A stretch of DNA of 64,000 nt from an uncultured Methanosarcinales archaeon. GTDB taxonomy: Archaea; Nanobdellota; Nanobdellia; Woesearchaeales; CAZYIM01. The notes beneath the pieces are model-generated. The model saw only the letters and a list, made by a program, of their open reading frames with translations, had not been told where the DNA came from and ran no database searches. Positions 981-63,071 of the stretch are shown here, piece after piece (position 1 is the first letter of the stretch; each line of letters begins with the position of its first letter). Location of the stretch: contig CAZYIM010000001.1 of NCBI GenBank assembly GCA_964647565.1, positions 1 to 64,000 of the forward strand, written 5' to 3'. A program made the translations under genes and the position numbers.

Positions 981-981
981 T

Positions 982-8733: not shown

Positions 8734-8736
8734 TAA

Positions 8737-9042: not shown

Positions 9043-9114
9043 AATCTCTCTTTAGAATTAGTTTATTTAAATCTATTGGAAAAGTTATTATATATCTTCA
9101 TCTTATCAGATCCA

Positions 9115-17700: not shown

Positions 17701-20700
17701 CAACATCCTGATCAGACCATTCACTGTCGCATACACCATCTGTACTGATGCATATTTCACAAGAAGGCTTCAATGGATTGGTCAGGTCAAAAACATCTGC
17801 AGATAGCAGGAATATTCCAAATATCATCGGAGGCGCATTGACTGTAACAGCGGGGGCAACACTATCGTTCACCCAGAAAGTCACAGATTCAGAGCTGCCA
17901 AGACCAACAACATCTGTCGCATAGACAATAAGGGTATTTTGGCCAAGGTTGGCTGTAATATTTATACGTTGATATTGATAGTCTGTGATTGTAACCAGAT
18001 CCTGATCATTCAGTTCAAATGCAGCCCATTGGATTTCCTCATTCACACTGTAGTTGAGATAAAGGAAAGGAGTAATGTAGTTGTCCTCTTGTGGAAAGTG
18101 TATTGTAATTTCAGGAGGTATCGTATCTACCATAATAGGTCCGCCCACCACTAAACTCGGACTGCCTCCGGGGTCAGCAGGGATAAATGGATTAGGCTCT
18201 GTAATATCGCCTGGAGAAGATAAGAATATCATTGTTCCTGGCTTTGCCTTGATCTCGCCAGAGCTAAAGAAATAATAGCCTACCAAGGACAAATTGCCCA
18301 TTGCTATTGCATCTTCTATAGTCATTGATGAAACTAAGGTATTATGATCAACTGTGTTGGTATCTGCCCAATGTGCATTTACAGGCACACCTTGGGCTGG
18401 CGTGCCGTTCGTAAATACCACCCTACCATAAAAGGTGGTCGGTAAGGCCGGCCTATAACGTGCATTGCCAGTTGTAAAAGTATAATAATGGCCATTGTTG
18501 TTTGCAATTGCCTTATTCCCAAACAAATCAGAGGAGATTACCTCAAATTTATAGTCAGTTTGGTGAAATAGTCCGCCAATAATAACAGAATGCTCAAGAG
18601 TTAGGCTTTCATCGTAGACCATAGAGTCATTAGCAGTAAAAATTCCAAAATTGACCAGACTGGTGCTGGCCTCATCAGTTGTCCAGGTAACCCTGGCAGT
18701 ATACGGTGTGATCTCATCAACAGAAATAGAACTGATTAGAGGAGCTGTTTCGTCAAAGTTGGTTGTAATGAAATGACTCTCGTTGTCAGTTTGATAAGTT
18801 ATATGTGCAGAACCGCTTACAAGAGTGATGTCTGAAACACCAGATACATCGTCAGTAATCTGCATCTGGCTTCGAATCACTACATTATTCTGGTCTAGTT
18901 TTATATAATAGAGGTTCTCAGCACCTTGAATAGTTTCAAGCCACAACAATTGAGCCTTGTTTTCTTGATCACAAGAAACCTCTGGGCTGGTTGCAGAACC
19001 ATTACTGGTTATATTTAGTGTTGAAAGCAGGATCCCCTCTTTGGTGAATCTGCCAAATACCACGTTATCATTGAGCAGCCAAGCTAAGCAGAGGTCTACG
19101 CTGACAGATACACTAGGATCAAATCCATATATCAATCCAGTCTCAAGATCCAGGTTCCCATTTTCCCTGTTTATCCTAATCAGCCTTATCTCATTAGTTG
19201 TACTTTTCTTATATACTATATATATAATATTCTCATGCTGGACAACACTAAAATCATTCATGTCAAGATCAGAACTGATCTGCTTGTCTGAAATCAGGTA
19301 TGCGCCTGCCTGGTCTATTTTCTTGAAGAAGAACTCAACATTGCCTGATCTGTCATCCAACCAAACAATATCCACAGACTCACCGCTAGCAAAAACAGCA
19401 GGTTGGATTGATTCAAACAAGTTATGGGTCACCCTCATCTCACTGATCAAAATATCGCCATTACTTGATAGTTTTGAATAATATATCTCTTTGTTTCCAT
19501 CCCGATCATCAACCCAGACTATATGGGCATTATTGGACGGATCTGTTGCAACTTGGGGATTATAGGAGTTATATAGATTGTTGGATATTCTATGATTATG
19601 GATTATCAGTTTTCCTACAGCATCAATCTTGCTGTAGTAAATCTCGCTGTTTCCGGCGTTGTTCTCTTCCCAGACAATATGCCTGTTATTAGCTGTGTCA
19701 ACCACAATATGGGGTTTTACTGATGGAGAATCATCAGCACCTGATGTGAGCACAGCATCTTCAGACCAGCTGATCAGCTCTTCAACATTTATTGTATAAT
19801 TGGCTGTTGCCAAGTTGCCTGTATGATCAAGAGTATTTAATAGGATCAAATGCTCGCCATAGATATCAGGCGCTATTACATCAATATTATATATTGTGCT
19901 CTGCGGATCAACCCTTTGCATCATCAAGGTCTGTCCAAAAATGCTTATATTCACGTAATTGACACCAAAATTATCAGAGACGTCTGCAGTCAAGGTGAAA
20001 TTTGCGAGTGCATCCACAATTGGAGGGAATGCCAGAATATTGATAGATGGGCCTGTCAAATCTACTATAGAGTGTTGTGATGGACTTTCTACAGTATTAT
20101 TGTTCATATCAGATATCCTAATTGAAACTGTGTAGTTGGCTTGAGTATAATTAGTCACATTCCAGAAATACGAACAAGTGCCTGAAAGATCTCCCACAAT
20201 AAAGCTCTGGTTCAGGCCATCTGTTGTCCATTCTGTGTCACATAGATTATCATTAGCAATGCAGATCTCACAGAAGGTAAGACCGTTATTGTCACCAACA
20301 ATTGCATGAAGTTGGACAGGTTCATTCAGGTATGGGGGAATATCATCCATTTCAATGGATGGAGGATTTGCATCCAACCTGCAAAAAAGATCAGTGGTTA
20401 AAGTATGCGCCCCTACACCACCTATCATTATTGCGTAGCTTCCATGATTCAATCCATCCAGTATCATGGAATCTGTCTGCCCAGCGGGTACAGTCATGTT
20501 CTGATCCCAGTTATTATCACACATATTAGGCATCAGCCTTACATACAGTTCCTTGTCATCTGTGGTCGCGGTAAGGGTCAGATTGACATTGCAGTCATCG
20601 CCTGTCAATGTAAAATAAAGATATTTTTCCTCGTAGCCTTCAACATAAGAACCTCCTGAATACAACCCGGTGTTGGCTATATCATGCTGGAATTGGTTCC

Positions 20701-28062: not shown

Positions 28063-28950
28063 ATGTTTAACAGAAAGATCGTACAACACGGATCTAGCAC
28101 ATTGACAATATCATTGCCTTACCGCTGGACGCAGAAATACGGACTCAATAAAGGTGATGAACTTGCATTAGAACCTCACGGAAAAAACCTGCTGATCAAG
28201 ACAGACAGGAATCCTGAGAATAAAGTGAAGAGCTTATCTTATCCTAAGAACAAGATCTTCCTAAAAAGGGATCTTCTTAACCTTTACCGTCAGGGATATG
28301 ACGAGGTAGTATTGAAATTCTCATATGAAATCCCTATTGCAGCCATATTAGAGCAGCTTGATGAGATCCTTGGCTTTGAAATTGTTGAACAGACAGAGAG
28401 CACCTGCATCATCAGGAATGTTGCCAATGTCAAGGTCAAGGAGTTTGACTCCATGTTAAAGCGGCTCTTTATTCTTGCGCACACATTTTCTTCGGCAGTG
28501 CTTGAGGCTATAAAGGAGAAAAATATCAGTAAATTGCAATCAGGAAAATCAGTGGAAAGGGAATCAAACAAGCTAGTCAACTATTGCCAAAGAGTGCTTA
28601 ACAAAGGTGACTTCGAGGATATAACAAGAATCACTGCATTATTTTCATTGGTAGACAGGTTAGAACTGATCAATGACTCTCTGGGCGATATAAGTGATTA
28701 TTTGATTAAGAAAAACTTTAGCCTGGATAATAAGACAATAATGTTCTTTGAAGAACTGAACAACCATTTCCAGGATATCTACATGCAGTATTTCTGCTCA
28801 AACAGGGTTGTATCTGAACTTAAGAAAAAAAGACTTGCATTATATACGCAGTTCTTTGATATCGCAGAGGACAAAAAACTCAACCTTATAGTTATGTCAG
28901 GTCTTAAACAAGTACTTGAAGAACTGCACCATATAGAAGTCTCACTCTAG
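28063..28950 (+). CDS. AbrB-PhoU fusion phosphate-uptake regulator (second paralogue)
   Basis: RKIVQHGSSTLTISLP...GLNKGDEL, YRQGYDE and GFEIVEQ. Confidence 0.85.
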   Translation: MFNRKIVQHGSSTLTISLPYRWTQKYGLNKGDELALEPHGKNLLIKTDRNPENKVKSLSYPKNKIFLKRDLLNLYRQGYDEVVLKFSYEIPIAAILEQLDEILGFEIVEQTESTCIIRNVANVKVKEFDSMLKRLFILAHTFSSAVLEAIKEKNISKLQSGKSVERESNKLVNYCQRVLNKGDFEDITRITALFSLVDRLELINDSLGDISDYLIKKNFSLDNKTIMFFEELNNHFQDIYMQYFCSNRVVSELKKKRLALYTQFFDIAEDKKLNLIVMSGLKQVLEELHHIEVSL

Positions 28951-30750
28951 AAGATGTTTATGCCTGCTGTTAGCAATAGCATCAACATATGCACATTTCA
29001 TATCTGAGAACTCAGGGGTATCCAGGAAACTGAGAGTATTCCTGACATATCTCTTGGCCATTTCTGTATCCTTATGCCGACATTGGTGCGTCATAACATG
29101 ATACATAGATATCCAGGCCTTATGGGCCTTGAAAGACGTGTACATCTTGTTCACTGTTCTCTTTATAGGGTTCTTCTGGCAATCTTGAAGTTTTTTTGCG
29201 CAATACATACCAAACAGATAATCATCATCCCTGACAAGATCTGGATTTTCATTCATGAATTTTGCGGCATCCTTTATCTCAGGCATATCAATCTCATCTA
29301 TTGCCTTGTTAAAATACTCCGATTTCTTTTCTGCTGAAAGATTGCCAAGGAAATCCACAACATCCGGATGGCCAAGCAATCTGGCAGCCATATATATAGA
29401 GCTGCCATTGCAGATCTTATCAAGATCATTGAGCTTGCCGCTTGTAAAATAATTAGACGGCTGCGAATCGTAGTTGGACAAGCAAGCTAAAAAATTAAGT
29501 CCCTGCATATCAAGATAGTCATTAGCAAATTCAGATGCACTATCAAGCAACCTATCTATAGACTCATTTGAGCCAGGAATATATTTCCTTTTGCCATTAT
29601 TAATTTCAAGATCTTTCTTTCTGGCCAGCCTTAACCGTTCGCCTTGCCGGCCCTGCACAATAGATTTCAAGAATTCGTCCTTATAATCGTGACGATCTAT
29701 ATTGACTGTGATTTTGAATTGGAACACACCCAAGTAAACATCCACTTTCATCTCGATCTTATCTTTTTTTGGCTTCGAATGTTTTGCAAGGGCGTTTTCA
29801 AACCTAATCTGTTTAGCCAAATGAGTCATTAATGATTTGTATTTATCATAATCAGGAACTGTTGCATCCTTAAGAAACACTTCCTGATCCTTACTTTCAT
29901 AAATAAGCACCTTATATTGAGGTTTCTTCTCGAAAATTGCAATTGGCGAAGCCACATTCTCAGGACCCATGATGCTCTTGTAGAAATCATTGAATATCTT
30001 AATAGAAGAGCCTCTCACAGGGACCATTACTGTCTTTCCCATATCCTTAGTGGTCCAAGGACAATCTTTCCAATCATAAACCAACATGCCCTGTGTGTTG
30101 ATCTTTTTTGTGCTTTTAGTTTTTATCCGGCTTGTATTAACCAATTTTTGAAATATAGTAAGCCACTCCATTTCATAAGCAAAAGATAACAACAGATTGT
30201 CAAGTTCTGGTGTACTGAGATTAGACTTGGCTTCTTGCGCAGGACCATTGATCTCAATAGTTAGTTTACCATCAGGATGTGGAATTTCCTGTTTCTTGCC
30301 AAACAGATTTTCCTGCTCTGCATGCTTGTAAAGACCGAAAAATAGTTCTACTAAATCCTTTCTTTCAAGAAAATCATTTTGCCCAAGAGCATTCATCCTG
30401 CCTGTCAAGTCTTGTAAACGCAAATCCATAATGATGCCTCTTTGTTCACAATATTCATTCACAGATTCAATATCTGATTGGGGATCATTATTGAATGTGA
30501 TGCCCATCTGATCGGATAGTTCTTTTCTCGCAGCATTATAGATCTTTGAAAGAAAAAGAGGCGTAAAAAATGATATATTTATCAGGCCTTTGATATCTTT
30601 TTTCATCAAATCATTATGTTCAAATAAATACTCTGCTGCAGCTGAAGGAGCTTCTCTTTTAAGTGATACAGCCTGCTCAAATATGTCTTCCAGAGATAAA
30701 TCTGTAGAAGTTTTCACACTATCTTCAATCATAGCTGTATTTTCAGGCAT
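28942..30750 (-). CDS. Hypothetical protein with a possible degenerate APH/choline-kinase-like domain
   Basis: NYDSQPSNYF...NDLDKICNGSSIYMAARLL resembles the HxDxxxxN...D(F/L)...G...YDLA pattern. Confidence 0.45.
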   Translation of the reverse strand: MPENTAMIEDSVKTSTDLSLEDIFEQAVSLKREAPSAAAEYLFEHNDLMKKDIKGLINISFFTPLFLSKIYNAARKELSDQMGITFNNDPQSDIESVNEYCEQRGIIMDLRLQDLTGRMNALGQNDFLERKDLVELFFGLYKHAEQENLFGKKQEIPHPDGKLTIEINGPAQEAKSNLSTPELDNLLLSFAYEMEWLTIFQKLVNTSRIKTKSTKKINTQGMLVYDWKDCPWTTKDMGKTVMVPVRGSSIKIFNDFYKSIMGPENVASPIAIFEKKPQYKVLIYESKDQEVFLKDATVPDYDKYKSLMTHLAKQIRFENALAKHSKPKKDKIEMKVDVYLGVFQFKITVNIDRHDYKDEFLKSIVQGRQGERLRLARKKDLEINNGKRKYIPGSNESIDRLLDSASEFANDYLDMQGLNFLACLSNYDSQPSNYFTSGKLNDLDKICNGSSIYMAARLLGHPDVVDFLGNLSAEKKSEYFNKAIDEIDMPEIKDAAKFMNENPDLVRDDDYLFGMYCAKKLQDCQKNPIKRTVNKMYTSFKAHKAWISMYHVMTHQCRHKDTEMAKRYVRNTLSFLDTPEFSDMKCAYVDAIANSRHKHLLE

Positions 30751-30827
30751 ATAGCATAAAAATAGCTTTAATCATTTATAAATGTTACTATTATTGAGTA
30801 ACAAATACACACATTTTTAGAAAAACC

Positions 30828-31231: not shown

Positions 31232-32089
31232 CTATCTGAGTGGCAGTAAAACCTTTTTCACTGGTTTCTTGTTCAATGCATAGATATTTCTCTTGATGAA
31301 ATGTGTGGCCTTGCAAAGTTTGTTCCTGTCCTCACCATAGCCAAAATTCTTGATTGCCCTTGCTAGCCCTACATTACCCACATTATGCACAATAGGTATC
31401 TTGGTTCCGTCTTTAAGGAAGAATTCTCCCTTCTCAATATAGAAGTCTTTCTCAGAACTCTCTGAGACAAAAAAGTTGTAAAGATTGGGCAGTATCTTGA
31501 ATCCATCCCTATGCAATATATAGTTGATCGATATCTGATCTGCCATGTACTTGCTCTTCTTGATAAGATGGTCGCACTCTTTGCACATTGCGATAAACTG
31601 GTCAACTGGCGCCACCATAACCCCGTAGTTGATTACCTTTTTGTCCTTAATCACAACCTTCATCTTCTTATAATCATCCTTAGAGAAACAGTTCTGGTAC
31701 ATATGTTCAATATGTATGCTCATCTGATGGATTGCAGCCCTGAAAGTATGCTTATCCTCATCAAACAAATGAGAGACGTCAGTCTGGATGATAAGATCAC
31801 CACTGTCACAGATAAGAATCTGGTCATATCTGGTTTTTATATTTTCAAACAGGATCGGAATGTCCTTAAACTGGGCAACCTTAAGAAAGCCAGTATTCTT
31901 CCCGCCTCTAAAGACTATCACGCCCGCATCTTTTAGTTTTTGCACATATTCATTTATAAGTCCGTAGTCCATAACAATGATATCGCAGTTGTCAAGGAAG
32001 ACATTATCTTGTATAGATTTGAGCCAATGGTTGAATAGAAATTCCTCTGCGTTACTGTCTGCACATATTAAAATAACATTCTTCATCAT
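31232..32089 (-). CDS. Putative glycosyltransferase (GT-A / GT8-like)
   Basis: DYGL, DSGDLIIQTD, INYGV, DQ, YN and VHN motifs in GT8-like order. Confidence 0.55.
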   Translation of the reverse strand: MMKNVILICADSNAEEFLFNHWLKSIQDNVFLDNCDIIVMDYGLINEYVQKLKDAGVIVFRGGKNTGFLKVAQFKDIPILFENIKTRYDQILICDSGDLIIQTDVSHLFDEDKHTFRAAIHQMSIHIEHMYQNCFSKDDYKKMKVVIKDKKVINYGVMVAPVDQFIAMCKECDHLIKKSKYMADQISINYILHRDGFKILPNLYNFFVSESSEKDFYIEKGEFFLKDGTKIPIVHNVGNVGLARAIKNFGYGEDRNKLCKATHFIKRNIYALNKKPVKKVLLPLR

Positions 32090-32145
32090 ATACCCTTATA
32101 AAAAAATATTTTCAATGCAGAATATTTAAACCTTGCGGTAAGAAT

Positions 32146-32544
32146 TTATCTGCTTTGTTCTTTTAGATTCTTTTTATAAGTCAGTTTATACTCTAAGAGT
32201 CCAAAATAGTTCCCAAAAAGCATACAAGGCATTGTTATCGGGTGCCTCTTAAATAAATTTTTAGGTGTAATCCCAGAATTATTCTCAGCATCAGACTTTA
32301 CAAAATAATATGCTGCGATTTCAGTCACATATTCCTTGACTCCGAAAAAACCCAAGATTGCTGCATTTCTTCCGTTTCCTTTGGACAACTCAATTCCACC
32401 CCATATCAATAAGGCATAAGCATCCGGAGCATATAAAAACGTCTTTAAGAAAGGCAAACCTATATTTTTAAGTTTCTCCTTAATATTATACTTTGATTTT
32501 GGAGCTTTACCAATTACTGAATCGATTGTGGTGTCCTGGTTCAT
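32146..32544 (-). CDS. Hypothetical membrane protein
   Basis: 132-aa ORF with hydrophobic stretches. Confidence 0.55.
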   Translation of the reverse strand: MNQDTTIDSVIGKAPKSKYNIKEKLKNIGLPFLKTFLYAPDAYALLIWGGIELSKGNGRNAAILGFFGVKEYVTEIAAYYFVKSDAENNSGITPKNLFKRHPITMPCMLFGNYFGLLEYKLTYKKNLKEQSR

Positions 32545-32634
32545 GATAAAAATTAAAATTAGATATAATTTATAAAACTTTTTGAAAAATTGCTATTAGA
32601 GAGTGAAAACAAATTATTAGGCATATGGAATTTT

Positions 32635-32663
32635 TCCGGTTTTTCCTGCTAAAGATTTATTAA
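32635..32663 (+). repeat. Dispersed 29-bp motif, copy 1
   Basis: TCCGGTTTTTCCTGCTAAAGATTTATTAA; 24/29 identical to the copy at 39794. Confidence 0.7.
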
Positions 32664-32701
32664 TCAGATTTATCCATTATGAAAAACAAAAAAACTTATA
32701 T

Positions 32702-32720
32702 ACTATAGTTGAACTATAGT
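32702..32720. promoter_or_regulatory. Palindromic operator of the mazEF-like TA module
   Basis: Perfect inverted repeat ACTATAGTT-G-AACTATAGT just upstream of the ATG. Confidence 0.65.
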
Positions 32721-32725
32721 CAGTT

Positions 32726-32950
32726 ATGATCACAACAATCCAGCTAAGTGAAAAAATAAAGATGGCTCTGAGCAAGATGAAAAAAAACAACAGGGAAACA
32801 TATGAAGAAGTCATAGTCCGTATGATAAAGACAATCAATGATTCTAAATCCGACAAGGAAAGCCTATTAAGAGAAGGCTATAAGGAAATGGCCAAAACCA
32901 CTGAAAAGACTCATAAAGAATGGTCTTTGACTGATTCCGGGTGGGATTAA
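32726..32950 (+). CDS. Antitoxin (EndoAI/MazE-like, RHH N-terminus)
   Basis: ITTIQLS...TYEEVI and LREGYKEMA; upstream of MazF. Confidence 0.8.
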   Translation: MITTIQLSEKIKMALSKMKKNNRETYEEVIVRMIKTINDSKSDKESLLREGYKEMAKTTEKTHKEWSLTDSGWD

Positions 32951-32951
32951 G

Positions 32952-33296
32952 ATGAAGATTAAAAGAGGCCAGATTGTAATGGTTAAGCTCGATCCTGTTG
33001 TCGGCTCAGAACAGGGAAAGACCAGGCCTGCATTGATCATCCAGAATGATATTGGTAACGAGTTCAGTCCTGTAACGATCGTAGCACCAATAACATCCCG
33101 AATAATTGACAAACAATATCCCACTAACGTACAGATAAGCAAAAAAGAATCAGGCTTGGATAAGGAATCCACAATCCTGTTAAATCAGATCAGGACAATT
33201 GACAAGACCAGGATAATCAAACCATTACGGATTCTAAACCAGGACCTGCTGGCTGATGTTGATTCTGCAATAAAGATAAGTCTTGGCCTGGAATGA
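32952..33296 (+). CDS. mazF: MazF/PemK endoribonuclease toxin
   Basis: LDPVVGSEQGKTRPALIIQNDIGN and QIRTIDKTR. Confidence 0.95.
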   Translation: MKIKRGQIVMVKLDPVVGSEQGKTRPALIIQNDIGNEFSPVTIVAPITSRIIDKQYPTNVQISKKESGLDKESTILLNQIRTIDKTRIIKPLRILNQDLLADVDSAIKISLGLE

Positions 33297-33401
33297 TTGT
33301 AACAGAAAAACACTTCTAAAACATAGAGATTTTACCACAAATATCTTTATAAAAAAAATTTAAATTTTGAAAACATAGAAAAAAACTAGAGGTGTTTTAT
33401 A

Positions 33402-34703
33402 GTGAATCCAGAGTTATCTGAACATTTTGCATCAAGAAAGCCGTCAGCCATCAGGCTGGCACAGATTGAGTTTGCGAAAAGAAACGACAAAACAATAGCA
33501 GTCAATACTGCAATAGGTAATGTATCATTGCCAATGCACCCTGCAATGATTGAGCGGATGAAGAATCTTGGAGGAGCGGGCAGCCCATTTGTCAAAGGCA
33601 TAGTCAAATACACATCAACAGTGGGCGTGGAAGAATCCAACAAGGCTTTCCTGAATATCATAGCCTCAAGCGGCTTTAAGACAGATAATCTATATTCACA
33701 GATCACTGACGGCGGAAGCCAGGCAATGGAACTAATAATTCTTGGCACATGCGGACCTGCAGGCAGCGATATTAAACCTTTGCTATTAATCGATGCATCA
33801 TACACCAACTATTCAGCTATGGCACAGCGGCTTGGCAGGAAAACAATCTCTGTGAGGAGGAACCTGCACGAACATGGCAAGTTCAGCCTGCCCGACATAA
33901 ATGAGATCGAGAGGGTTATTGAAGAGTTCAAGCCAGGAGCAATGATCGTCATCCCATATGATAATCCTACAGGTCATTTCTATGACCATAAGACGATGGT
34001 GGAACTTGGCCAGCTTTGTGTCAAGCACAACATGTGGATGATAAGCGATGAGGCATACAGAGAGCTGCACTATGTCGATCACGACACATCAAGCATCTGG
34101 GGACTTCTGGATGACGAAGTGCCAGGCATAGAAGGAAGAAGGATAAGCATTGAGACTGCATCCAAGGTCTGGAATGCTTGCGGACTCAGGATAGGTGCAT
34201 TGGTAACTGATAACGAAGATTATCATAAAGCGTCTGTTGCTGAAAACACCGCAAACCTTTGCTCCAATGCAATTGGCCAATATATCTTTGGTGCAATGGC
34301 ACAAGAAAGTCAAGAAGACTTAAAGACTTGGTATTCTAAACAAAGAAAATACTATCATAACATGATGTCAATGATGACCCAGGAGATTAAGCAAAGATTG
34401 CCGGGCGTCATCATTTCAAGTCCAGACGCATCCATATACTCTGTTGTGGATGTAAGGGATATAGCTAAACCAGGTTTCAATGCACTCGATTTTGTCTTGT
34501 TCTGTGCAAAAGAGGGCAAAGTGAATGTTGATGGCAAACAGACAACCCTGTTGGTCTCACCTATGGCAGGATTCTATAATGTAGAAGAAGGTCAAGAAAA
34601 TCCAGGGGATACCCAGATGAGAATAGCCTATGTAGAGACTCCTGAAAACATGGCTAAGGTGCCGTTATTGTTTACAGATCTTTTCAATCAGTACAATAAA
34701 TAA
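33402..34703 (+). CDS. PLP-dependent aminotransferase, class I/II
   Basis: DNPTG, SDEAY and SKVWNACGLRIG. Confidence 0.9.
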   Translation: MNPELSEHFASRKPSAIRLAQIEFAKRNDKTIAVNTAIGNVSLPMHPAMIERMKNLGGAGSPFVKGIVKYTSTVGVEESNKAFLNIIASSGFKTDNLYSQITDGGSQAMELIILGTCGPAGSDIKPLLLIDASYTNYSAMAQRLGRKTISVRRNLHEHGKFSLPDINEIERVIEEFKPGAMIVIPYDNPTGHFYDHKTMVELGQLCVKHNMWMISDEAYRELHYVDHDTSSIWGLLDDEVPGIEGRRISIETASKVWNACGLRIGALVTDNEDYHKASVAENTANLCSNAIGQYIFGAMAQESQEDLKTWYSKQRKYYHNMMSMMTQEIKQRLPGVIISSPDASIYSVVDVRDIAKPGFNALDFVLFCAKEGKVNVDGKQTTLLVSPMAGFYNVEEGQENPGDTQMRIAYVETPENMAKVPLLFTDLFNQYNK

Positions 34704-34754
34704 ACCCATTGACAGAATCTACACTTGAGGTATGCGAGATAAAGAGGTGAATCC

Positions 34755-36239
34755 TCAAGATTTTTTCTTTTTCTTGGATTTTTCTTTTTCTTCTAGACCA
34801 AACCAGTTCTTGATTTTGACCTCAGTAACATCTGAACTATCACCACTATATATATAAGGCATGTCGCTGAGCTGATCCTTCGTGATATTTTCAAGGATTC
34901 CAGGATTCTCTGAAATTATTTTATGTACTACAGTTCTATGATCACGAAATTTATTCCCTGTCAGGATCACTGCAAGCTTGGCTTCTTTGGAAAGCTTTCT
35001 GATATCGATTCCCTCTGGTAAATAAGATCTCAGCTGTTCAGCGCCTTTTGCGCTGCGCCTTGCAGCATACATCACATTCTTGAAAAGCTGCTTGGCTTTG
35101 CCAAACTGAGATAGTTTAAGGATATTTTCTGCAATATAACTGACATCTTCAGGGCTTTCACGGCACGCAGCGTATCCAATCGCTGCTTTTGCCAGATGAG
35201 GCCCCATCTTGTCAATAGCCCTTAACTTATTAAGCACAGGTTCCTTGGTTATGCTATTTGCGAACTTAACAAGAGATGTACCGCCAAACTCAGTGCCAAG
35301 AGCAATATATACTTCTTCTGGAAGTTTTGCATCCTTTATCTTCTCAGCAGCATCCAATACATCTTCTGGCCTCTCAGAGATTTTAGTTCGGCCCAAACGT
35401 GCATAGCTTGAATCATTCATTTTCTGGATAACATGATCAACAAATGCAGCTCTTCCAGTCTCAAACAAAGTTTCAGCTCTTCTGACTGTATCTGCAAATG
35501 TATTATCATCCCAGGCATATCGATCTGCAGACTTGTTAAACTTAGGAAGCGAATATGTCCAATCTTTGTTTTTCATTGAATTATACTTATTAGTGAAGGA
35601 TCGGATTGCTTTTACCAGTCCCAGATCATTAACCTTGATTCCAGGATCAATAGCTGATAAATCATCTTTGTCTTTTAATTCCGCATAGAAACTAAATATC
35701 TCATCAACAATTGCTCGATAGTTTTCAGCATTATATCCCTCAATAGCTAACTGTAAAGCTGAAATTAATTCAGAACTTCCTGATGCTTTTTCAATCATCA
35801 TATCTGTTATTTCAGATTGTCCATATACTGCTTGTCGGATAGTCAGATCTATAGCAGGGTTGCTACCGAAATTATATTTATGAGGAAATTGGTTTTCAAC
35901 AGCAGATAGCTGTTCTTTAATATGAGGATTTTCCAGATTCTCTGTTGCAGTCATTGCAGCCTGATAATTATTCTCTACAATATCTGCCAACTCTCTTGCA
36001 ACAGTCGTCCTATGATCAAACTCAGGATATGACGCAATTGCAGCACCGATCCTTGCTCCGTTCTCTGTATAGACTGCCAAGGCTGCAGGAAGAATATCTT
36101 TATATTTTGGCGACATCGCCAAAAGTTCAACAGAATCAACAAACGAGTGATCTTCGTGTGTTAGCTTGAACGCATTCATAGCATCGCCATATGATATTGC
36201 CACCTGGGCCATCATGGCTTTTCCCGAGTTATTTTTCAT
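34755..36239 (-). CDS. Hypothetical helical protein
   Basis: 494-aa ORF with a GGTGG RBS. Confidence 0.65.
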   Translation of the reverse strand: MKNNSGKAMMAQVAISYGDAMNAFKLTHEDHSFVDSVELLAMSPKYKDILPAALAVYTENGARIGAAIASYPEFDHRTTVARELADIVENNYQAAMTATENLENPHIKEQLSAVENQFPHKYNFGSNPAIDLTIRQAVYGQSEITDMMIEKASGSSELISALQLAIEGYNAENYRAIVDEIFSFYAELKDKDDLSAIDPGIKVNDLGLVKAIRSFTNKYNSMKNKDWTYSLPKFNKSADRYAWDDNTFADTVRRAETLFETGRAAFVDHVIQKMNDSSYARLGRTKISERPEDVLDAAEKIKDAKLPEEVYIALGTEFGGTSLVKFANSITKEPVLNKLRAIDKMGPHLAKAAIGYAACRESPEDVSYIAENILKLSQFGKAKQLFKNVMYAARRSAKGAEQLRSYLPEGIDIRKLSKEAKLAVILTGNKFRDHRTVVHKIISENPGILENITKDQLSDMPYIYSGDSSDVTEVKIKNWFGLEEKEKSKKKKKS

Positions 36240-36375
36240 AAAACACCACCCTCACACATTGATAACCACTCAGAAATGGTTTAAAATTAATAAAACTTTC
36301 TGTTTGTGTGTGTGATTTTTCCCTGACTTGCTATTAAGAAAGTTACTCTCTTTGTATACCAAGCAAAATACCCAT

Positions 36376-37563
36376 CTAAATATTTTTTTTCAATCTTAAT
36401 GCTACTTCATCTATGAACTCCTCACTAAAATAAGATCGTTTAGGAACTGGCTTAGCTAGAGCTGCAAGATCTTTGGTCATTATCCCAGATTCAATTGTTT
36501 CGATGACTGCGGCTTCCAGAGTCTCAGCAAATCCAATCACCTTAGGTGTCTTATCCAGCTTTCCTCTCCTTCTTATAGCTCCTGTCCATGCAAAGATTGA
36601 GGCTACAGGATTGGTTGATGTTGGGTTTCCTTTCATATGCTCTCTGTAATGCCTAACAACTGTCCCGTGCGCAGCCTCATATTCATATTCACCTTCAGGA
36701 GAGACTAATACAGACGTCATAAGGCCTAAACTCCCAAAGCCTGCTGCGACCATGTCCGACATAATATCACCCTCATAGTTCATGCACGCCCAAATGATAC
36801 CTCCCTCATTCTTCATGATCTGTGCAACAGCATCATCGATCAGCAAATATCTATACCTGTTTTCAATACCAGCCAGTCTCATCTCTTCAAGGAATATTTC
36901 CTTGAATCTGGCATGATAATTCTTTGATATTGTGTCTTTTGTTGCAAACCAGACAGGATAATCATTATTCTCTGCATATTTGGCGCAAGACTTGGCAAAA
37001 CTTCTAATAGACGCCTCAGTATTAAACATTCCCTTGATTACACCTGGACCCGAGAAATCGTTTATCTTAAGAGAAATCCCCTTACCTTTTATTGGATTAT
37101 AAACAAGACAGGCATTACCTGCAGAAGGAACCCTAAAATCAACACTGGTGTAAATATCACCATAAGCATGCCGGGCTATGATAATTGGTTTGTTCCAACT
37201 CCTGACAAAAGGTGGTATATTTTTTACAAGGATAGGTTTTCTAAAGACTGTACCATCTAGAAACGATCTTATGGTGATGTTCGGGCTTGAGTATTGTCTC
37301 TTTAGACTGAACTCCTCCACTCTTTCTTCATTAGGAGTTATTGTTGCGCATTTGACACCCACTTTGTATTTCTTGATTGCTTTTGCAGCATCAGTTGTTA
37401 TATTATCATCGGTTTCGTCCCTTTTTTGAATTCCCAGATCAAAGTATTTAAGTTCAACATCAAGGAATGGGCAGATAAGCTTTTCCTTGATCATCTTCCA
37501 AAGCACTCTTGTCATTTCATCGCCATCCAGTTCAACAATCGGATTAGTTGCTTTTATCATCAT
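36376..37563 (-). CDS. icd: NADP-dependent isocitrate dehydrogenase (eukaryote-like subfamily)
   Basis: [39 protein letters not shown] and TSTNP. Confidence 0.95.
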
Positions 37564-37682
37564 ATATTCACCTCTACATATTCCCCTCTAGATCGAAAAC
37601 CAAGTCTATTTCAGAACCTAGTATGATAATTTGAAAACCCTTTATAAACTTATTGGGGATGTACAAAATAATGTTCAGATTT

Positions 37683-37711
37683 TCCAGTCTTTCTCCATAG
37701 AGATATATCAA
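37683..37711 (+). repeat. Dispersed 29-bp motif, copy 2
   Basis: TCCAGTCTTTCTCCATAGAGATATATCAA; 24/29 identical to the copy at 40582. Confidence 0.6.
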
Positions 37712-37726
37712 ATAGAAATTCTATTA

Positions 37727-38323
37727 TCACAAACCATTAAGTATGACATTCCGAAATTTGGCAGGCGGACTTCTTTCTAGCTTGAACACCTTTTCAGATG
37801 TATCAAAACCATGCTTAACCATCATATCCTGGAACTTTAAGAAAATCTTATAGGTAGCTTGGGCATCTGCCATGGCCCTATGGGCCTGGTCATTGACAAC
37901 ATTGAAATGCTCACACAAGAATGCGAGTCTCCTGCTAGGAAGGCTGGGCAATAGTCTGGTTGTCAGCTTACAGGTACATAACCGCTCGTTTGTAAATGAT
38001 CTATCCAAATGCTGTTCTGCATTGTGATTAAGAAAGCCATAGTCAAATGTTGCGTTATGGGCAATCATCACCCTGGAGCCCATGAACCTTAAGAATCTTG
38101 GCAGGATCTTGTTGATAGGTTTGGCCTTTGCAACCATGTCATCGTCTATGCCAGTCAATCTGGTTATGAAACTTGGGATGTGCACTCCTGGATTCACGAG
38201 TGATTGGAATTCATCCTTGACTTCACCATCTTTCACTTTCACTGCAGCCAGCTCTGTTATCTGATGACGTCTCTTGGATAAACCTGTGGTCTCTATATCA
38301 ACAACAACATAATCATCTATCAA
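37727..38323 (-). CDS. DnaQ/PolC-like DEDDh 3'-5' exonuclease
   Basis: DIETTG, AHNATFD and HRAMADA; TTG start after AGGTGA. Confidence 0.9.
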   Translation of the reverse strand: MIDDYVVVDIETTGLSKRRHQITELAAVKVKDGEVKDEFQSLVNPGVHIPSFITRLTGIDDDMVAKAKPINKILPRFLRFMGSRVMIAHNATFDYGFLNHNAEQHLDRSFTNERLCTCKLTTRLLPSLPSRRLAFLCEHFNVVNDQAHRAMADAQATYKIFLKFQDMMVKHGFDTSEKVFKLERSPPAKFRNVILNGL

Positions 38324-38417
38324 CTTTTCACCTATATTTTTCGTAAGATAGACATATATAAAGTTTGTTGGACTGGAAAACAATGTTTGGCAAAGATGTC
38401 TTATTGATCCTAGAATA

Positions 38418-38446
38418 TCCGGAGTTTCCTCAAAGAAATTTACTGA
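38418..38446 (+). repeat. Dispersed 29-bp motif, copy 3
   Basis: TCCGGAGTTTCCTCAAAGAAATTTACTGA; 25/29 identical to the copy at 39794. Confidence 0.65.
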
Positions 38447-38449
38447 AAG

Positions 38450-39649
38450 TTATTTATCTAATTCGCTCAGGTTTCCCTTATATCCTATAGATATTGTGCT
38501 TTGACTAGATAATGGAAAACCCGGTAGATAAACTGAGGTGTTATCTAAGAATAATGATTGGTAATTTACTGCTTTTGAAGTCCGAGCCCCAAGCTGTCCC
38601 ATCTTATTTGTAAATCGGGCCATGAATTCTGCAGCAGTATCGCATTCAAGATCCGATAGGGAGAATGAATATGTGTTTTTTTCATATTGCTCTTTACTTA
38701 ATCCGATCTGATTTCCTTTAGTTCCAACAAGCTGGATTCCACCCATACCAGGGATCTCCTCTGGCATGTTATCCAGATCAAACCATTGCGAACCATTAGT
38801 CAGGCATCCTGTAAAAACAGGATCTGGTACAGCTGCAAAACCACAAGCCCTGTATCCGAACTCTTTTGCCAACTGAGTATATGCTTCAAGGGGCGATTGC
38901 CCTTTAAGGAAAAACGAATAACCGATCCCAGTTGCTTGACCCCTAAGTGATCTTAAGTCCTCTGCTTTCATCCCCTTACTGAACTGTTTATGTTTTTCAA
39001 CTATAAAGCTTGTGTCAAACATCTTAAAATTATAAACATGCTCGTTTAACGAAGCCACTTTTGAAAACAAGTCAGCATGACCACTTCTTGCTGCTAAAGC
39101 ATAGTTTAATACTGATTTTCCCTGAAGATCGTGTTCATCTTTAAATATATGCTTGTCAATTACGATTAATCCTTTGCAAACAGGATCTGGAGAGAATTTT
39201 TTCCTTGCCCATTCTTTTAGGTTCCATAATTTCATTGCAGCTTCCCATTTAGTCATGGATAATAGCTCATATTTATCGGGAACTTTTTTTAATGGTGAAC
39301 CGTTTATTATAATATTTTCCTGAGGCGCTACTTGAGTTGAATTTTTTTCTACAAGGGTTTTTGTTTTTCTTGGTTGACCAAGTTTTTTCTGCTGATTATC
39401 CGGAAATATTTCAAAATAGATCCCAAAATTATCTGGCTCCGATAATGTCTCTAATTGATGTGCATATACATTCTGGTCTTTAAAATAGTCCAGAAGTTGT
39501 GATTTGGTCTCTTCGGGTGTTAGCTTAACACCAAAGTTAAACCTATTGAAGATTATATCTGCACCACCTTCGATGATCCCTTTACTGACATCATTAAAAT
39601 TCATATTATGGATTTTATCTGGTTCTACATCCAATTTTATATTTTCCAT
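38450..39649 (-). CDS. Hypothetical protein
   Basis: About 400-aa ORF; start placed at ATG 39649, downstream of a TATA-like sequence. Confidence 0.6.
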   Translation of the reverse strand: MENIKLDVEPDKIHNMNFNDVSKGIIEGGADIIFNRFNFGVKLTPEETKSQLLDYFKDQNVYAHQLETLSEPDNFGIYFEIFPDNQQKKLGQPRKTKTLVEKNSTQVAPQENIIINGSPLKKVPDKYELLSMTKWEAAMKLWNLKEWARKKFSPDPVCKGLIVIDKHIFKDEHDLQGKSVLNYALAARSGHADLFSKVASLNEHVYNFKMFDTSFIVEKHKQFSKGMKAEDLRSLRGQATGIGYSFFLKGQSPLEAYTQLAKEFGYRACGFAAVPDPVFTGCLTNGSQWFDLDNMPEEIPGMGGIQLVGTKGNQIGLSKEQYEKNTYSFSLSDLECDTAAEFMARFTNKMGQLGARTSKAVNYQSLFLDNTSVYLPGFPLSSQSTISIGYKGNLSELDK

Positions 39650-39793
39650 TAATACAGGTAACATCTTATAAAGGATTAAAACCACATTTATAAATGTTGC
39701 CACTATACAGGAGTTTAAATTGCTTATGTTTCCGTTAATAATAAAAGAACAATAAAATCCACAAAGAATATATTCACTTTTTTCTAAAAATGC

Positions 39794-39822
39794 TCCGGTT
39801 TTTCCTCAAAGAAATTTATTAA
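39794..39822 (+). repeat. Dispersed 29-bp motif, copy 4
   Basis: TCCGGTTTTTCCTCAAAGAAATTTATTAA. Confidence 0.75.
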
Positions 39823-39863
39823 GCAACCATTCTTAAAATCCAATTAGATATAGAAAAGTTTAT

Positions 39864-39884
39864 ATATAACATGATATGTTATAT
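39864..39884. promoter_or_regulatory. Palindromic operator of the third TA module
   Basis: Perfect inverted repeat ATATAACAT-GAT-ATGTTATAT right after the TATA box. Confidence 0.6.
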
Positions 39885-39902
39885 GATTTATGAGGTTATA
39901 CA

Positions 39903-40199
39903 TTGCGGAAGGTCATATTGAACCAGGATTTCCTGATCGAAGAGAATCTAAGAATTGTGAAAAGATTGTGGAAGGTAGACAAAACTTCAGATTTTCCTCA
40001 GGGCCAGGAGTTTTCAATACAGCTATTGCAACAGTTAGCAGGCTACTGGATTCAAATAGCCAGAATAGACAATCAGAAACACAAGAGAAAACCTGGTGTG
40101 CACATTCATAAATTAAACGGTTTTGTGATTTGGGAAGACATGACATTTAAAGAAGCTGTGAAAAGAATTTCGAATATAGCCCAACACACCAGAAGGTAG
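39903..40199 (+). CDS. Putative toxin (DUF6516/TumE-like)
   Basis: DFPQG, ARIDN and HIH motifs; paired with a downstream HTH protein. Confidence 0.6.
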   Translation: MRKVILNQDFLIEENLRIVKRLWKVDKTSDFPQGQEFSIQLLQQLAGYWIQIARIDNQKHKRKPGVHIHKLNGFVIWEDMTFKEAVKRISNIAQHTRR

Positions 40200-40203
40200 A
40201 AAA

Positions 40204-40566
40204 ATGAGAATTGAGATCGTTAATGAAATTTTTAAGAGAATGAAGACAGATGATGGCTATGTTGAAGCTGCGATTAATGATAAAATAGAGATTGATCCAA
40301 AAAAGGCAGAGAAGACCTTGATCATGACCCCTGCGGTTTTTGCAAAAGTATTCTCACCTCAAAGAATGCACCTGATCCTTAAGGTAAGTAAGAACAACAT
40401 CCAGAACATCTATCAGATCGCAAAAGATCTAAATCGGAAATACGCAGCAGTGCACAGGGATATCTCATATCTGAAAAGCATAGGTATTCTCAAACTCAGG
40501 AAGAAGAACAAAAAGGTTATCCCTTACATTGCAGAAAATATCATGATGCCAAAGATACCCGCCTAA
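40204..40566 (+). CDS. Putative antitoxin / winged-HTH regulator
   Basis: VFSPQR...IYQIAKDLNRKYAAVHRDISYLKSIG...P. Confidence 0.7.
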   Translation: MRIEIVNEIFKRMKTDDGYVEAAINDKIEIDPKKAEKTLIMTPAVFAKVFSPQRMHLILKVSKNNIQNIYQIAKDLNRKYAAVHRDISYLKSIGILKLRKKNKKVIPYIAENIMMPKIPA

Positions 40567-40581
40567 GATATCCAAGATATT

Positions 40582-40610
40582 TCCGGTTTTTCTCCAGAGA
40601 GATTTATTAA
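40582..40610 (+). repeat. Dispersed 29-bp motif, copy 5 (overlaps the likely TATA box of the tctA-like gene)
   Basis: TCCGGTTTTTCTCCAGAGAGATTTATTAA; 25/29 identical to the copy at 39794. Confidence 0.75.
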
Positions 40611-40632
40611 GCAATCCTTCCAAAATCAATAG

Positions 40633-41835
40633 ATGTTTTGGCAGATTTTGCTCGCAATAACCCTTGGTGTGACTTCAGGGATTCTTACAGGCCTGATTCC
40701 AGGCATCCATGTAAACCTGGTCTCTTTGATAGCTTTATCTCTTTCACCATTGCTTCTGCAGTTTGTCTCTCCAGTCACTATTGCTGTCTTTATCATCTGC
40801 CTGGCAGTGACTCATTCGTTTCTTGATTCGATTCCTTCAATATATTTAGGTGCTCCAGATGAAGCCCAGGCATTGTCTGTGTTACCAGGTCATCGGATGC
40901 TATTAGAAGGCAGGGGCTATGACGCACTCAAACTCACTCTTGTTGGAAGTTTCTTTTCTTTATTGCTTTGTTTGGTACTTGTGCCCCTGTTTCTCCCGCT
41001 TGTTGAACTCGTCTATCCGATCATCAAGAATTTCATCGGCTATATATTGATAGCTGTCATGGCTTACCTGATCTTAAAGGACAACAAGAGAAAATATAAC
41101 TTCCTGGTTTTTGCATTGAGCGGCTGCCTCGGCTTTGTTGTTCTGAACATCCCTAATGTTGATAATGTTCTCTTCCCTCTGCTATCCGGCTTGTTTGGTT
41201 TTTCAGTCTTGATAACCAGCATCATGCAAAACTCCAGGATCCCAAAGCAAGAAATCTCCAAGAAAACAGATATTGAAAGAAAGACCATTGCCAAGGCAGT
41301 CGCAGGCGCAACCACTGTCGGCTTCATCGCTTCTTTCCTTCCTGGTTTTGGCTCCAGCCAGGCAGCTATCATAGCAACACAAGTTCTAAGAAACATCGGC
41401 AACAATGGCTTTTTAATTCTAGTCGGAGGCATTAATACTGTCAACTTCACCTTGAGCTTGATCACATTATATATAATAGACAAAGCAAGGAATGGAGCTG
41501 TTGTGGCTATTTCACAAATTGTTGATAAAACCACACTGACAGAACTAAGCATTTACTTTTCTGGCGCACTTATCGCAGGCAGTATTGCGGTCTTTTTAGC
41601 CCTATCCATTGCCAAGATATTCTCAAAAATGATCTCAAAGGTCAACTACAAAGTCCTTGTTCTCTCAATCATAGGATTCACAATAATATTGGTATTTTAT
41701 TTCAGCGGAGGGCTTGGCCTTGCCATTTTAATTACAGCCACAGCCCTTGGCTTCTTTGCAGGCTTGTTAGGCGTTGGCAAGAACCACTGTCTAGGTTGTC
41801 TGATTGTGCCCGTTATCTGTTATTTTGTATTATAG
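40633..41835 (+). CDS. TctA-family (tripartite tricarboxylate transporter-like) permease, archaeal type
   Basis: TGLIPGIHVN, HSFLDSIPSIYLGAP and SVLPGHRML..GRG. Confidence 0.9.
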   Translation: MFWQILLAITLGVTSGILTGLIPGIHVNLVSLIALSLSPLLLQFVSPVTIAVFIICLAVTHSFLDSIPSIYLGAPDEAQALSVLPGHRMLLEGRGYDALKLTLVGSFFSLLLCLVLVPLFLPLVELVYPIIKNFIGYILIAVMAYLILKDNKRKYNFLVFALSGCLGFVVLNIPNVDNVLFPLLSGLFGFSVLITSIMQNSRIPKQEISKKTDIERKTIAKAVAGATTVGFIASFLPGFGSSQAAIIATQVLRNIGNNGFLILVGGINTVNFTLSLITLYIIDKARNGAVVAISQIVDKTTLTELSIYFSGALIAGSIAVFLALSIAKIFSKMISKVNYKVLVLSIIGFTIILVFYFSGGLGLAILITATALGFFAGLLGVGKNHCLGCLIVPVICYFVL

Positions 41836-41850
41836 AAAGCTTTAAATATG

Positions 41851-41906
41851 TGTGGTGACTAACTTAAGAAAAATAGAGAAAATTTTTTATTTGTGGTGAC
41901 TAACTT
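41851..41906 (+). repeat. 15-bp perfect direct repeat at the Fic promoter and start codon
   Basis: TGTGGTGACTAACTT at 41851-41865 and 41892-41906. Confidence 0.75.
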
Positions 41907-42783
41907 GGTCTTTGTAAGAAAGAAAAATATCAAGGGAAGGGAGTATTATTATCTTGTTAAATCTACAAGGCAGGGTAAAAAATGGAAGAAGATAGAGAGA
42001 TATGTGGGTATTAATCCTCCTTCTGAAAAAGACATAAACTGTTTCAATCAAGAAATTGATAGTGTTAAGAAATTCCTTGACTCAAAAAAAGAGACTTTGC
42101 TAAATATCGAGAGAAAATATCAGGCATGGTTAAAATCTGCAAAAACAGATCAGCTGCATAATTATGAAGATGAGATAATCATAAGGTTCACGTATGATAC
42201 CAGCCGGATTGAGGGATTAAGCTTGACTTACAAGGATACCCGTCTCCTGCTCCAACAAGGCATAACCCCTTCCCAAAAGCCAATAAGAGACATAAAAGAG
42301 ACTGAAAACCACAAGAAAGCATTCTTGTTCATAAAAGAATGCCTAGGAAAAACAATCACTAAAGATTTCATATTTGAACTGCACAGGCTGCTAAAAGAGG
42401 GAGTGTCAGAAGATGCAGGGAGTTTCAGGAACGCTAATGTAATTGTGGGCGATTTGATTCCAATAAAACCTTCTTTAATAGAGCAAGAGATCAACAATCT
42501 TCTTGTCTGGCTGCAAAAGAACAAGAACTTGCATCCCCTAGAAAAGGCAGCTATATTTCACAGCATCTTTGAGAGGATACATCCTTTTTTTGATGGCAAC
42601 GGAAGAGTGGGTCGATTGCTGTTGAACTTCATCATGCTAAAGAACAACTTTCCGATAATCATTGTTCAGAACAAAAACAAGAGAAGATACTACACTGCAT
42701 TAAGAAGGGCTGATCAAGGCAACTATCTTTTCATGGTTAAGTATCTTTTTTCTGAATTAATAAGGCAGCCTTATTTAAATTAG
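41893..42783 (+). CDS. Fic family protein with an N-terminal basic beta-domain
   Basis: HPFFDGNGRVGR, TSRIEG inhibitory motif and N-terminal KKNIKGREYYYLVKS. Confidence 0.9.
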   Translation: MVTNLVFVRKKNIKGREYYYLVKSTRQGKKWKKIERYVGINPPSEKDINCFNQEIDSVKKFLDSKKETLLNIERKYQAWLKSAKTDQLHNYEDEIIIRFTYDTSRIEGLSLTYKDTRLLLQQGITPSQKPIRDIKETENHKKAFLFIKECLGKTITKDFIFELHRLLKEGVSEDAGSFRNANVIVGDLIPIKPSLIEQEINNLLVWLQKNKNLHPLEKAAIFHSIFERIHPFFDGNGRVGRLLLNFIMLKNNFPIIIVQNKNKRRYYTALRRADQGNYLFMVKYLFSELIRQPYLN

Positions 42784-62555: not shown

Positions 62556-63071
62556 ATGAACAACAGAATATTAGGCTTGATCATGGTTGCTGTGTGCATA
62601 ATTATGGGTATATTGATTTTCTCTTTTAATTCAAAACTCAGTCAGCAGGCAGAGGCTGGCTGCCAATGTGAAACCATGGAAGCTGGCGGCTTCTGTCCGC
62701 ATGATCAGGGCACCCCCTGGCAGACCTATCTTGGAATCGGACTGATGGGTGCTATCTTTGCTTTAGGTATTTTCCTTATCTTCTTTGAGAAATCGCAAAA
62801 AGCAATCATATCTACACTGGAAAATCAGAAAAAGATGCAGACAGAAGAAGAGAAGTTCGATATCCTTCTAAAGGGTCTTGATTCTTATGAACAGAAAGTC
62901 ATAAAAGCAGTCAAAGAGCAGGACGGCATCACACAGCAGACATTAAGACTCAGAGCAGATATGCACAAGTCCAAGCTTAGCATTGTCCTGGACTCTCTTG
63001 AGAAAAAAGGCCTTGTCAAGCGTAAGGAAAAAGGCAAGACCAAGCAGGTATTTCTTAAATTTAAGCTTTAA
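62556..63071 (+). CDS. Membrane-anchored winged-HTH transcriptional regulator
   Basis: Two TM helices, then GITQ..L......KSKLS..L..LEKKGLVKR...GKT. Confidence 0.8.
   Translation: MNNRILGLIMVAVCIIMGILIFSFNSKLSQQAEAGCQCETMEAGGFCPHDQGTPWQTYLGIGLMGAIFALGIFLIFFEKSQKAIISTLENQKKMQTEEEKFDILLKGLDSYEQKVIKAVKEQDGITQQTLRLRADMHKSKLSIVLDSLEKKGLVKRKEKGKTKQVFLKFKL

Follow-up and report, generated by a model that had tools for sequence, protein, structure and literature searches.

A co-oriented 29-nt motif between genes of a DPANN archaeon: a probable promoter with a conserved upstream block and a plausible history of local duplication

Integrons occur in Nanoarchaeota, and toxin-antitoxin (TA) systems make up 10.5% of functionally annotated cassette proteins, according to the accessible portion of PMC9668308. 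Promoter reuse upstream of unrelated genes is documented in prokaryotes in the available text of PMC3575422, where putative mobile promoters are defined as sequences upstream of unrelated genes that are 80% or more identical over 50 nt or more; the same text reports no promoter transfer between Archaea and Bacteria. Archaeal activators that recruit the TATA-binding protein (TBP) or transcription factor B (TFB) bind immediately upstream of the TFB recognition element (BRE), as described in extracts of two studies (PMC5512572, PMC5937170). The element considered here is a 29-nt motif, TCCGGTTTTTC-N9-ATTTATTAA in its intact form, which is present in five copies on one strand of the first 64,000 nt of contig CAZYIM010000001.1 (assembly GCA_964647565.1; the whole stretch is called the window below). 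About an even chance is given to the reading that the motif is a locally propagated promoter module with an upstream factor block, of which three copies are live and two are dead, and which records insertions or rearrangements in the gap between icd (isocitrate dehydrogenase) and tctA (a membrane permease). Knowledge of promoters and regulation in DPANN archaea is minimal. The locus would provide a defined DPANN core promoter including leaderless spacing, a testable candidate factor-binding block, and a small, datable case of promoter duplication alongside gene insertion in a streamlined genome.

Five ungapped, same-strand, intergenic copies had been reported in a preliminary description of this DNA, and they were recovered far above chance by weight matrices, shuffles and repeat search. 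All five lie within 8 kb of the 64-kb window, four of them in four consecutive intergenic gaps, as had been described; scans with a position weight matrix (PWM) found nothing comparable in the remaining 56 kb. The copies are as follows.

32635 to 32663, plus strand: copy C1, both blocks intact (0 mismatches), in a divergent gap between a minus-strand gene (32146-32544) and a mazE/mazF-like operon; motif start 91 nt upstream of the ATG at 32726.
37683 to 37711, plus strand: copy A, in decayed form (TCCAGTCTTTC...ATATATCAA), flanked by the icd promoter and by the stop codon of an exonuclease gene.
38418 to 38446, plus strand: copy B, decayed, TCCGGAGTTTC...ATTTACTGA, ending 3 nt before the stop codon (38450-38452) of an orphan gene.
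39794 to 39849, plus strand: copy B', intact; the motif (39794-39822) continues into a 27-nt duplicate of the tctA leader, which stops at the place corresponding to the tctA ATG.
40582 to 40634, plus strand: copy A', intact, the predicted tctA promoter, with the ATG (40633) 30 nt after the start of its TATA box.

The copies at 32635, 39794 and 40582 matched TCCGGTTTTTC-N9-ATTTATTAA at 20 of 20 fixed positions, and no match to this pattern occurred in any of 100 shuffled windows. All five copies were placed in one family (D1) by an independent repeat search. When a PWM built solely from the three perfect copies was run over both strands, 38418 (26.6 bits) and 37683 (25.7 bits) ranked fourth and fifth; the next-best site of the window scored 13.9 bits and the top of 40 Markov-1 simulations 17.6 bits. 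In both of these copies, the left and the right block each contain 2 mismatches.

Among the three intact copies, 20/20 columns are invariant in the blocks, 2/9 in the spacer and 6/40 in the flanks; the blocks were defined post hoc from the same sequences, which inflates the p-value of this conservation. The centre of the motif is its most variable part, and similarity of the flanks, upstream or downstream, was significant in 0 of 10 copy pairs. Pairwise identity over the five copies ranges from 18 to 25 of 29 nt. The value of 24-25 of 29 given earlier holds for four of the ten pairs (37683/40582 and 32635/39794 with 24, 38418/39794 and 39794/40582 with 25), but not for the others. The nested pairing of the cores was found as described: the 9-nt core is identical in 38418 and 39794 (9/9) and nearly so in 37683 and 40582 (8/9), so that the pairs are nested in physical order.

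A weaker copy had also been suspected near 26245, and a sixth copy at that position is not supported. The site has 13-17 of 29 positions in common with the five copies, and its motif-PWM score (11.7 bits) is under the mean shuffle maximum (13.5 bits). An antitoxin gene follows it at 90 nt, and a paralogue of that gene (41% identity over 32 residues, E=4e-6) follows copy 32635 at 91 nt; the in-register identity of the two regions is 49/111, borderline against a 99.9th percentile of 47. This spacing and identity argue, at a borderline level, for an ancient relationship.

The right half of the motif consists of ATTTATTAA preceded by purines, and is of the same BRE/TATA type as the window's own promoters. 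An upstream gap of 40 nt or more is present for 39 genes, and in 11 of these a TTTAWWWA box begins between -40 and -28. A TTTAWWWA box 40-28 nt before the start codon is a signature of leaderless transcripts, and the tctA box, at -30, is inside this modal leaderless class of the window. In a promoter PWM built from 10 other promoters of the window (TTTAWWWA class), the copies at 32635, 39794 and 40582 scored 10.2, 7.8 and 10.2 bits, all above the 99.9th percentile of the window (7.1 bits), whereas those at 37683 (1.8 bits) and 38418 (1.3 bits) failed to reach the 99th percentile (2.4 bits). The assignment of the right end as a BRE/TATA promoter is thus supported by its sequence, and the earlier statement that the site contains a TATA box was borne out. 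Given the TATA score and the correct distance to tctA, the right block is accounted for by TBP/TFB. A leader would be needed at 32635 and 39794, since the start codons lie 91 and 109 nt from the motif starts. Bacterial-type promoters and terminators predicted in 32000-41000 were about as frequent as in shuffles (28 against 28.4, and 7 against 5.8).

A second repeated promoter element is the perfect palindrome AACATTTATAAATGTT (0-1 mismatch), seen three times in the window with 0.12 expected (4296-4311, 30771-30786 and 39683-39698). The minus-strand genes downstream of it are, respectively, 3367-4251, 28942-30750 and the orphan. Promoter cores in this genome appear, from such sequences, to be stereotyped or reused.

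The left block, TCCGGTTTTTC, has the same base at all of its 11 positions in each intact copy. It ends 9 nt before ATTTATTAA, 10 nt before TTTA and about 2-3 nt upstream of the BRE. Since both blocks are perfectly kept in otherwise diverged DNA, a function is indicated for both, and both appear to be under selection. By analogy with the archaeal activators, TCCGGTTTTTC is most likely a putative binding site of another DNA-binding factor; candidate regulators in the window are a winged helix-turn-helix (wHTH) protein (40204-40566) and a MarR/TrmB-like protein (62556-63071). The preliminary description had offered, as its own alternative, a transcription-factor site upstream of a BRE-TATA element: the BRE/TATA part of this held, and the factor part comes closer to the account favoured here. 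Literature matches to the literal string TCCGGTTTTTC dealt, judging by titles and abstracts, with tRNA engineering, RNA structure and unrelated topics, with no link to archaeal promoters, and none of the matches listed for Woesearchaeota promoters mentioned Woesearchaeota. An origin of the left block from a tRNA fragment was ruled out, as ARAGORN found no tRNA in the window.

The intact copies face plus-strand genes, and the two degraded copies have no co-oriented downstream gene. As had been noted, the latter lie only 3-15 bp from the stop codons of minus-strand genes, with ends at 37711 and 38446 against stops at 37727-37729 and 38450-38452. The argument that a promoter makes little sense there stands for both copies, with the qualification that the same gaps also hold the icd and exonuclease promoters. 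Because the copies at 37683 and 38418 are degraded in both blocks, they look like dead promoters and not like maintained recombination sites.

A common descent of part of the family is indicated by the leader. The alignment of the copies at 39794 and 40582 spans 56 nt and runs as far as the tctA start codon, with about 46 of 56 columns identical (~82%) and a score of 31.5 against a null maximum of 17. Taken alone, the 24-27 nt of leader after the motif scored 12, whereas the best of 1640 null pairs, drawn from other promoter-to-start spacers, reached 10. Since this score beats all null pairs, 39794 is taken to be a paralogue of the whole tctA promoter plus leader, and, as it carries the tctA leader, at least part of the family arose by duplication. 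An insertion or duplication history in the icd-tctA gap is plausible from these sequences, and the nested similarity of the copies suits insertions there. Two histories fit, namely two nested insertions flanked by direct repeats, or serial insertions at one promoter with the type-1 core ancestral.

The genes and promoter elements around the copies are listed below; operator functions are putative.

32695 to 32720 (region), plus strand: proximal TATA-like box CTTATATAC of the MazEF-like operon, about -30 from the ATG at 32726.
32702 to 32720, plus strand: operator-like direct repeat ACTATAGT-TGA-ACTATAGT, between TATA and start.
32726 to 33296, plus strand: type II TA operon, with a DUF7557/VapB-like antitoxin at 32726-32950 (E=1.4e-5).
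32952 to 33296, plus strand: MazF/PemK toxin (PemK_toxin, E=2.3e-34).
36376 to 37563, minus strand: icd, NADP isocitrate dehydrogenase (NF006156, 605 bits).
37641 to 37648, minus strand: icd TATA box TTTATAAA, at -85.
37727 to 38320, minus strand: DEDDh 3'-5' exonuclease (RNase_T, E=1e-41), stop codon 37727-37729.
38355 to 38380, minus strand: own promoter of the exonuclease gene, with TATA TTTATATA (38362-38355) and, 8 nt upstream, TTTTCCAGTC (38380-38371).
38450 to 39664, minus strand: orphan, a rare gene of unknown function; the longest open reading frame (ORF) extends to 39703.
39859 to 39866, plus strand: proximal TATA TTTATATA of the two-gene operon, at -44.
39866 to 39882, plus strand: perfect 7-3-7 palindrome ATAACAT-GAT-ATGTTAT, a possible operator between TATA and start.
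39903 to 40566, plus strand: two-gene operon for a 98-aa protein and a 120-aa winged-helix protein of the HVO_A0114 family (E=2.1e-15).
40633 to 41835, plus strand: TctA-family membrane permease (TctA, E=3e-56).

The operon at 32726-33296 combines a toxin domain with a small DNA-binding partner, as in type II TA systems. The operon at 39903-40566 is tentatively a TA pair: matches of the 98-aa protein were sub-threshold (DUF7718, E=0.008; TumE toxin, E=0.065), and searches of PDB sequences with both small proteins gave nothing below E = 0.1. Of the TA modules said earlier to be preceded by a copy, the MazEF-like pair after 32635 was thus confirmed, while for 39903-40566 the toxin matches remain sub-threshold. 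Besides the motif, both operons have a proximal TATA box at the customary distance and an operator-like repeat of their own.

The exonuclease gene had been counted among accessory genes, a view that the homologues contradict. It has 923 of them at E <= 0.001, the named ones mostly from Woesearchaeota or Nanoarchaeota, with a best identity of 62%. By its homologues the gene is a conserved gene of the Woesearchaeota/Nanoarchaeota lineage, with a divergence like that of TctA, whose homologues reach 64% identity and, where named, belong to Woesearchaeota or Nanoarchaeota. These two best identities indicate that the contig comes from a Woesearchaeota-like DPANN archaeon without a close sequenced relative. 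The homologues are about 185-208 aa long and cover up to 100% of the 197-aa form of the exonuclease; from their lengths the start is likely TTG 38320 (197 aa) and not 38383. The promoter of the gene contains TTTCCAGT on the minus strand (38372-38379), and its 10-mer TTTTCCAGTC equals the start of copy A (37680-37689) in inverted orientation; it is possibly a partial, inverted sixth member of the family with shorter spacing.

The view of the orphan as an accessory gene was upheld, in that the gene is rare. A search of 5.8 billion proteins returned only two non-self clusters (54% and 46% identity), profile scans gave no family match, there was no usable Atlas match, and the AlphaFold model, from a 3-sequence alignment, had a mean predicted local distance difference test (pLDDT) score of 39.8. 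The likely start is ATG 39664, which is 30 nt after the gene's own TATA box, TTTATAAA (39694-39687). The earlier idea that each captured gene lands next to a promoter does not fit these genes, as the exonuclease and orphan genes are antisense to the motif and have promoters of their own.

Protein records place a cluster identical to TctA on a contig with a length of 148,183 nt, and clusters identical to the orphan and the exonuclease only on contigs of 37,725 nt or less. These records could reflect bookkeeping, or a near-identical genome without orphan and exonuclease, which would be an empty-site lead. Against phages and plasmids, blastn of 37564-40640 gave no match.

In the favoured reading, the motif is taken as a lineage-specific promoter module that was copied locally. 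Its 3' part would be an ordinary BRE/TATA core promoter of this genome (purine-rich bases, then ATTTATTAA), and the 5' block TCCGGTTTTTC the site of a putative TBP/TFB-recruiting factor upstream of the BRE. The copy at 40582 would act as the leaderless tctA promoter, those at 39794 and 32635 as distal second promoters upstream of the two TA-like operons, and those at 37683 and 38418 would be decaying relics pointing into the 3' ends of minus-strand genes. At least the orphan and the two-gene operon would have been inserted into an ancestral icd-promoter-tctA gap, with the promoter duplicated at the junctions. The copies, their promoter-grade or degraded scores, the tctA spacing and the duplicated leader are direct observations; from them we infer that a factor binds, which copies are active, and how and in what order the insertions took place.

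Several points weigh against this reading. The left block could serve another purpose, and the need for an activator is not evident, since the TATA boxes are already promoter-grade. No shared function is apparent for the units that would be driven (MazEF-like, TumE-like/wHTH and TctA). Foreign origin is not indicated by gene composition, apart from a weak signal in the orphan only (third-codon-position GC content, GC3, z = -2.1). The exonuclease gene lies inside the outer repeat pair, yet is lineage-conserved (62% against 64% for TctA), so that a simple insertion of foreign DNA is unfit for it. Finally, the reading calls for a mechanism that duplicates 25-56 nt at the junctions.

Of the other explanations, a local regulon survives best, although it is unlikely. 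All five copies would then be functional, the odd ones regulating icd and the exonuclease gene or giving rise to antisense RNAs that target the exonuclease and orphan genes at their 3' ends, with no insertion history. Four of the five copies do lie in a gap from which a minus-strand gene also starts, and the exonuclease promoter carries TTTTCCAGTC just upstream of its TATA box. However, the left block and the minus-strand TATA box are separated by about 34, 55, 57 and 100 nt, without a common geometry, the copies at 37683 and 38418 have lost both the block consensus and the promoter score, and the duplicated tctA leader in 39794 argues for common descent and not convergence. Further evidence on either side came from a scan of 185,579 species-representative genomes, a set that does not include the window's own genome, with a strict pattern of 18 specified bases. 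The scan found 103 loci, each with a single copy, close to chance expectation by our own estimate; four of the 103 are archaeal and none is labelled Woesearchaeota or Nanoarchaeota. Two archaeal loci, from metagenome-assembled genomes (MAGs) labelled Methanosarcinales (L093, 300-420; L087, 271-330), have the strict motif at promoters with leaderless spacing. L093 carries four extra TTCCRG-type elements upstream, the most of the 103 loci, some of them palindromic (TTCCGGAA), and L087 a second, tandem TTCCAGTTTTTCC 20 nt upstream. Such further elements would suit a regulon, and hint that TTCCGG-type elements are factor sites in other archaea, which may be coincidental; but the label of both loci denotes a different lineage, and four archaeal loci of 103 is about the chance level.

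It is distinctly unlikely that the motif is the crossover site of a recombinase encoded elsewhere, at which modules were inserted serially to give a cassette-like array that carries promoters. The arrangement invites the idea: four copies stand as direct repeats in four consecutive gaps in one orientation, core similarity is nested, two conserved blocks enclose a variable centre, and TA-like modules adjoin copies as in integron arrays. As integrons in Nanoarchaeota often carry TA cassettes, gene capture was worth testing. The preliminary description had proposed an insertion hotspot reminiscent of pdif modules or integron arrays, and none of the recombination-site features examined (hairpin, attC core, dyad, tRNA, alternating orientation) was found. 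pdif sites alternate in orientation. The motif has neither dyad symmetry nor a hairpin, and the repeat search reported no inverted repeat inside it. In single-stranded form, 86-nt segments around the five copies had fold z-scores of 0.61, -0.52, 0.59, 0.54 and -1.71; as the copies with their flanks fold no better than shuffles, an attC hairpin is absent. The site is non-palindromic, as had been stated, the reverse complement of ATTTATTAA being unrelated to TCCGGTTTTTC; since neither block is an inverted copy of the other, it is not Xer/dif-like. Also as stated, no recombinase gene is present: in Pfam scans, 0 of 61 ORFs of the window matched a recombinase, integrase or transposase family, which is not decisive alone. 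Direct repeats of the kind that accompany integrase att sites are present, but an integrase and a tRNA are absent, and a Rfam scan of the whole window gave 0 matches. Both blocks have decayed in the copies beside the supposedly older cassettes, a TATA box correctly spaced from tctA fully explains the right block, the exonuclease 'cassette' is a gene conserved in the lineage, and none of the species-representative genomes had two or more strict copies.

An improbable variant supposes an undescribed DPANN mode of gene capture, in which a recombinase encoded elsewhere targets a bipartite, non-palindromic promoter; modules would enter between promoter and gene, and the promoter would be regenerated at each junction, giving an array punctuated by promoters. 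Were the motif a recombination site, it would represent a novel type of gene-capture site, a reading that the evidence at hand does not favour.

It is very improbable that the 29-56-nt unit is itself a self-mobile miniature element transposing into intergenic DNA, whether a mobile promoter or similar to a miniature inverted-repeat transposable element (MITE): copies do lie upstream of unrelated genes and the 39794/40582 pair, at ~82% over 56 columns, marginally reaches the published definition of a putative mobile promoter, but the other nine pairs do not reach it, the absence of terminal inverted repeats and target-site duplications shows that the motif is not a MITE, the flanks are unrelated, the unit is very short, the copies are clustered and co-oriented and not dispersed, the other 56 kb hold no further copies, and the species-genome scan gave no multi-copy genome.

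The neighbourhood is rich in genes of defence or stress type (the MazEF-like pair, a ParE-like pair, two Fic proteins, a UvrD/HRDC helicase and the DEDDh exonuclease). Two proteins of about 292-295 aa with an AbrB/MazE-like N-terminus and two Fic-domain proteins are encoded at 7855-9861, 28063-28950 and 41893-42783; one Fic-domain gene directly follows the first AbrB-like gene, and the genes may be paralogous two-gene modules. A 34-nt direct repeat (41832-41865 and 41873-41906; 76% identity, 41 nt apart) lies before and across the GTG start of a Fic gene (41893) and looks like a small tandem duplication of the gene's start region. Elsewhere, a giant ORF of 3847 aa (11750-23293, minus strand) with subtilase S8, FG-GAP, fibronectin III and Kelch repeat matches probably encodes a surface protein, and five packed, consecutive minus-strand genes (258-4251; 240-294 aa, most overlapping the next by 4 nt), without a Pfam match, appear to form an operon of unknown function.

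Compared with described systems, the motif shares with Xer/dif and pdif sites two conserved blocks, a variable centre and a length of about 29 nt; it differs in that its blocks are not inverted copies, all sites are co-oriented and no Xer gene is in the window. Integron attC arrays and clusters of attC sites lacking integron-integrases (CALINs), those reported in Nanoarchaeota (PMC9668308) among them, likewise have same-orientation repeats between small modules, some of them TA-like, and in CALINs no integrase is near. The attC sites are hairpin-forming imperfect palindromes, whereas this motif has no such structure, is 29 nt long and is half TATA box, and the modules at this locus carry their own promoters and lie in both orientations. 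Putative mobile promoters, in the available text of Matus-Garcia, Nijveen and van Passel (2012; PMC3575422), are likewise homologous promoters upstream of unrelated genes in one genome; here, by contrast, the pairs other than 39794/40582 share only 29 nt, the copies cluster in consecutive gaps, and dead copies face 3' ends. From the published extracts on archaeal activator promoters, the motif is set apart by a non-palindromic TCCGGTTTTTC, by TATA boxes that are not weak, and by matching none of the published sites compared (EarA, GvpE and TFB-RF1, the last being TCTG-N5-CAGA). What it shares with the EarA site of the fla promoter, the TFB-RF1 site of pf1089/pf1011 and the upstream activating sequence (UAS) of GvpE is a conserved block that abuts the BRE/TATA element, a 9-nt purine-rich spacer with a BRE, and correct spacing to the start codon.

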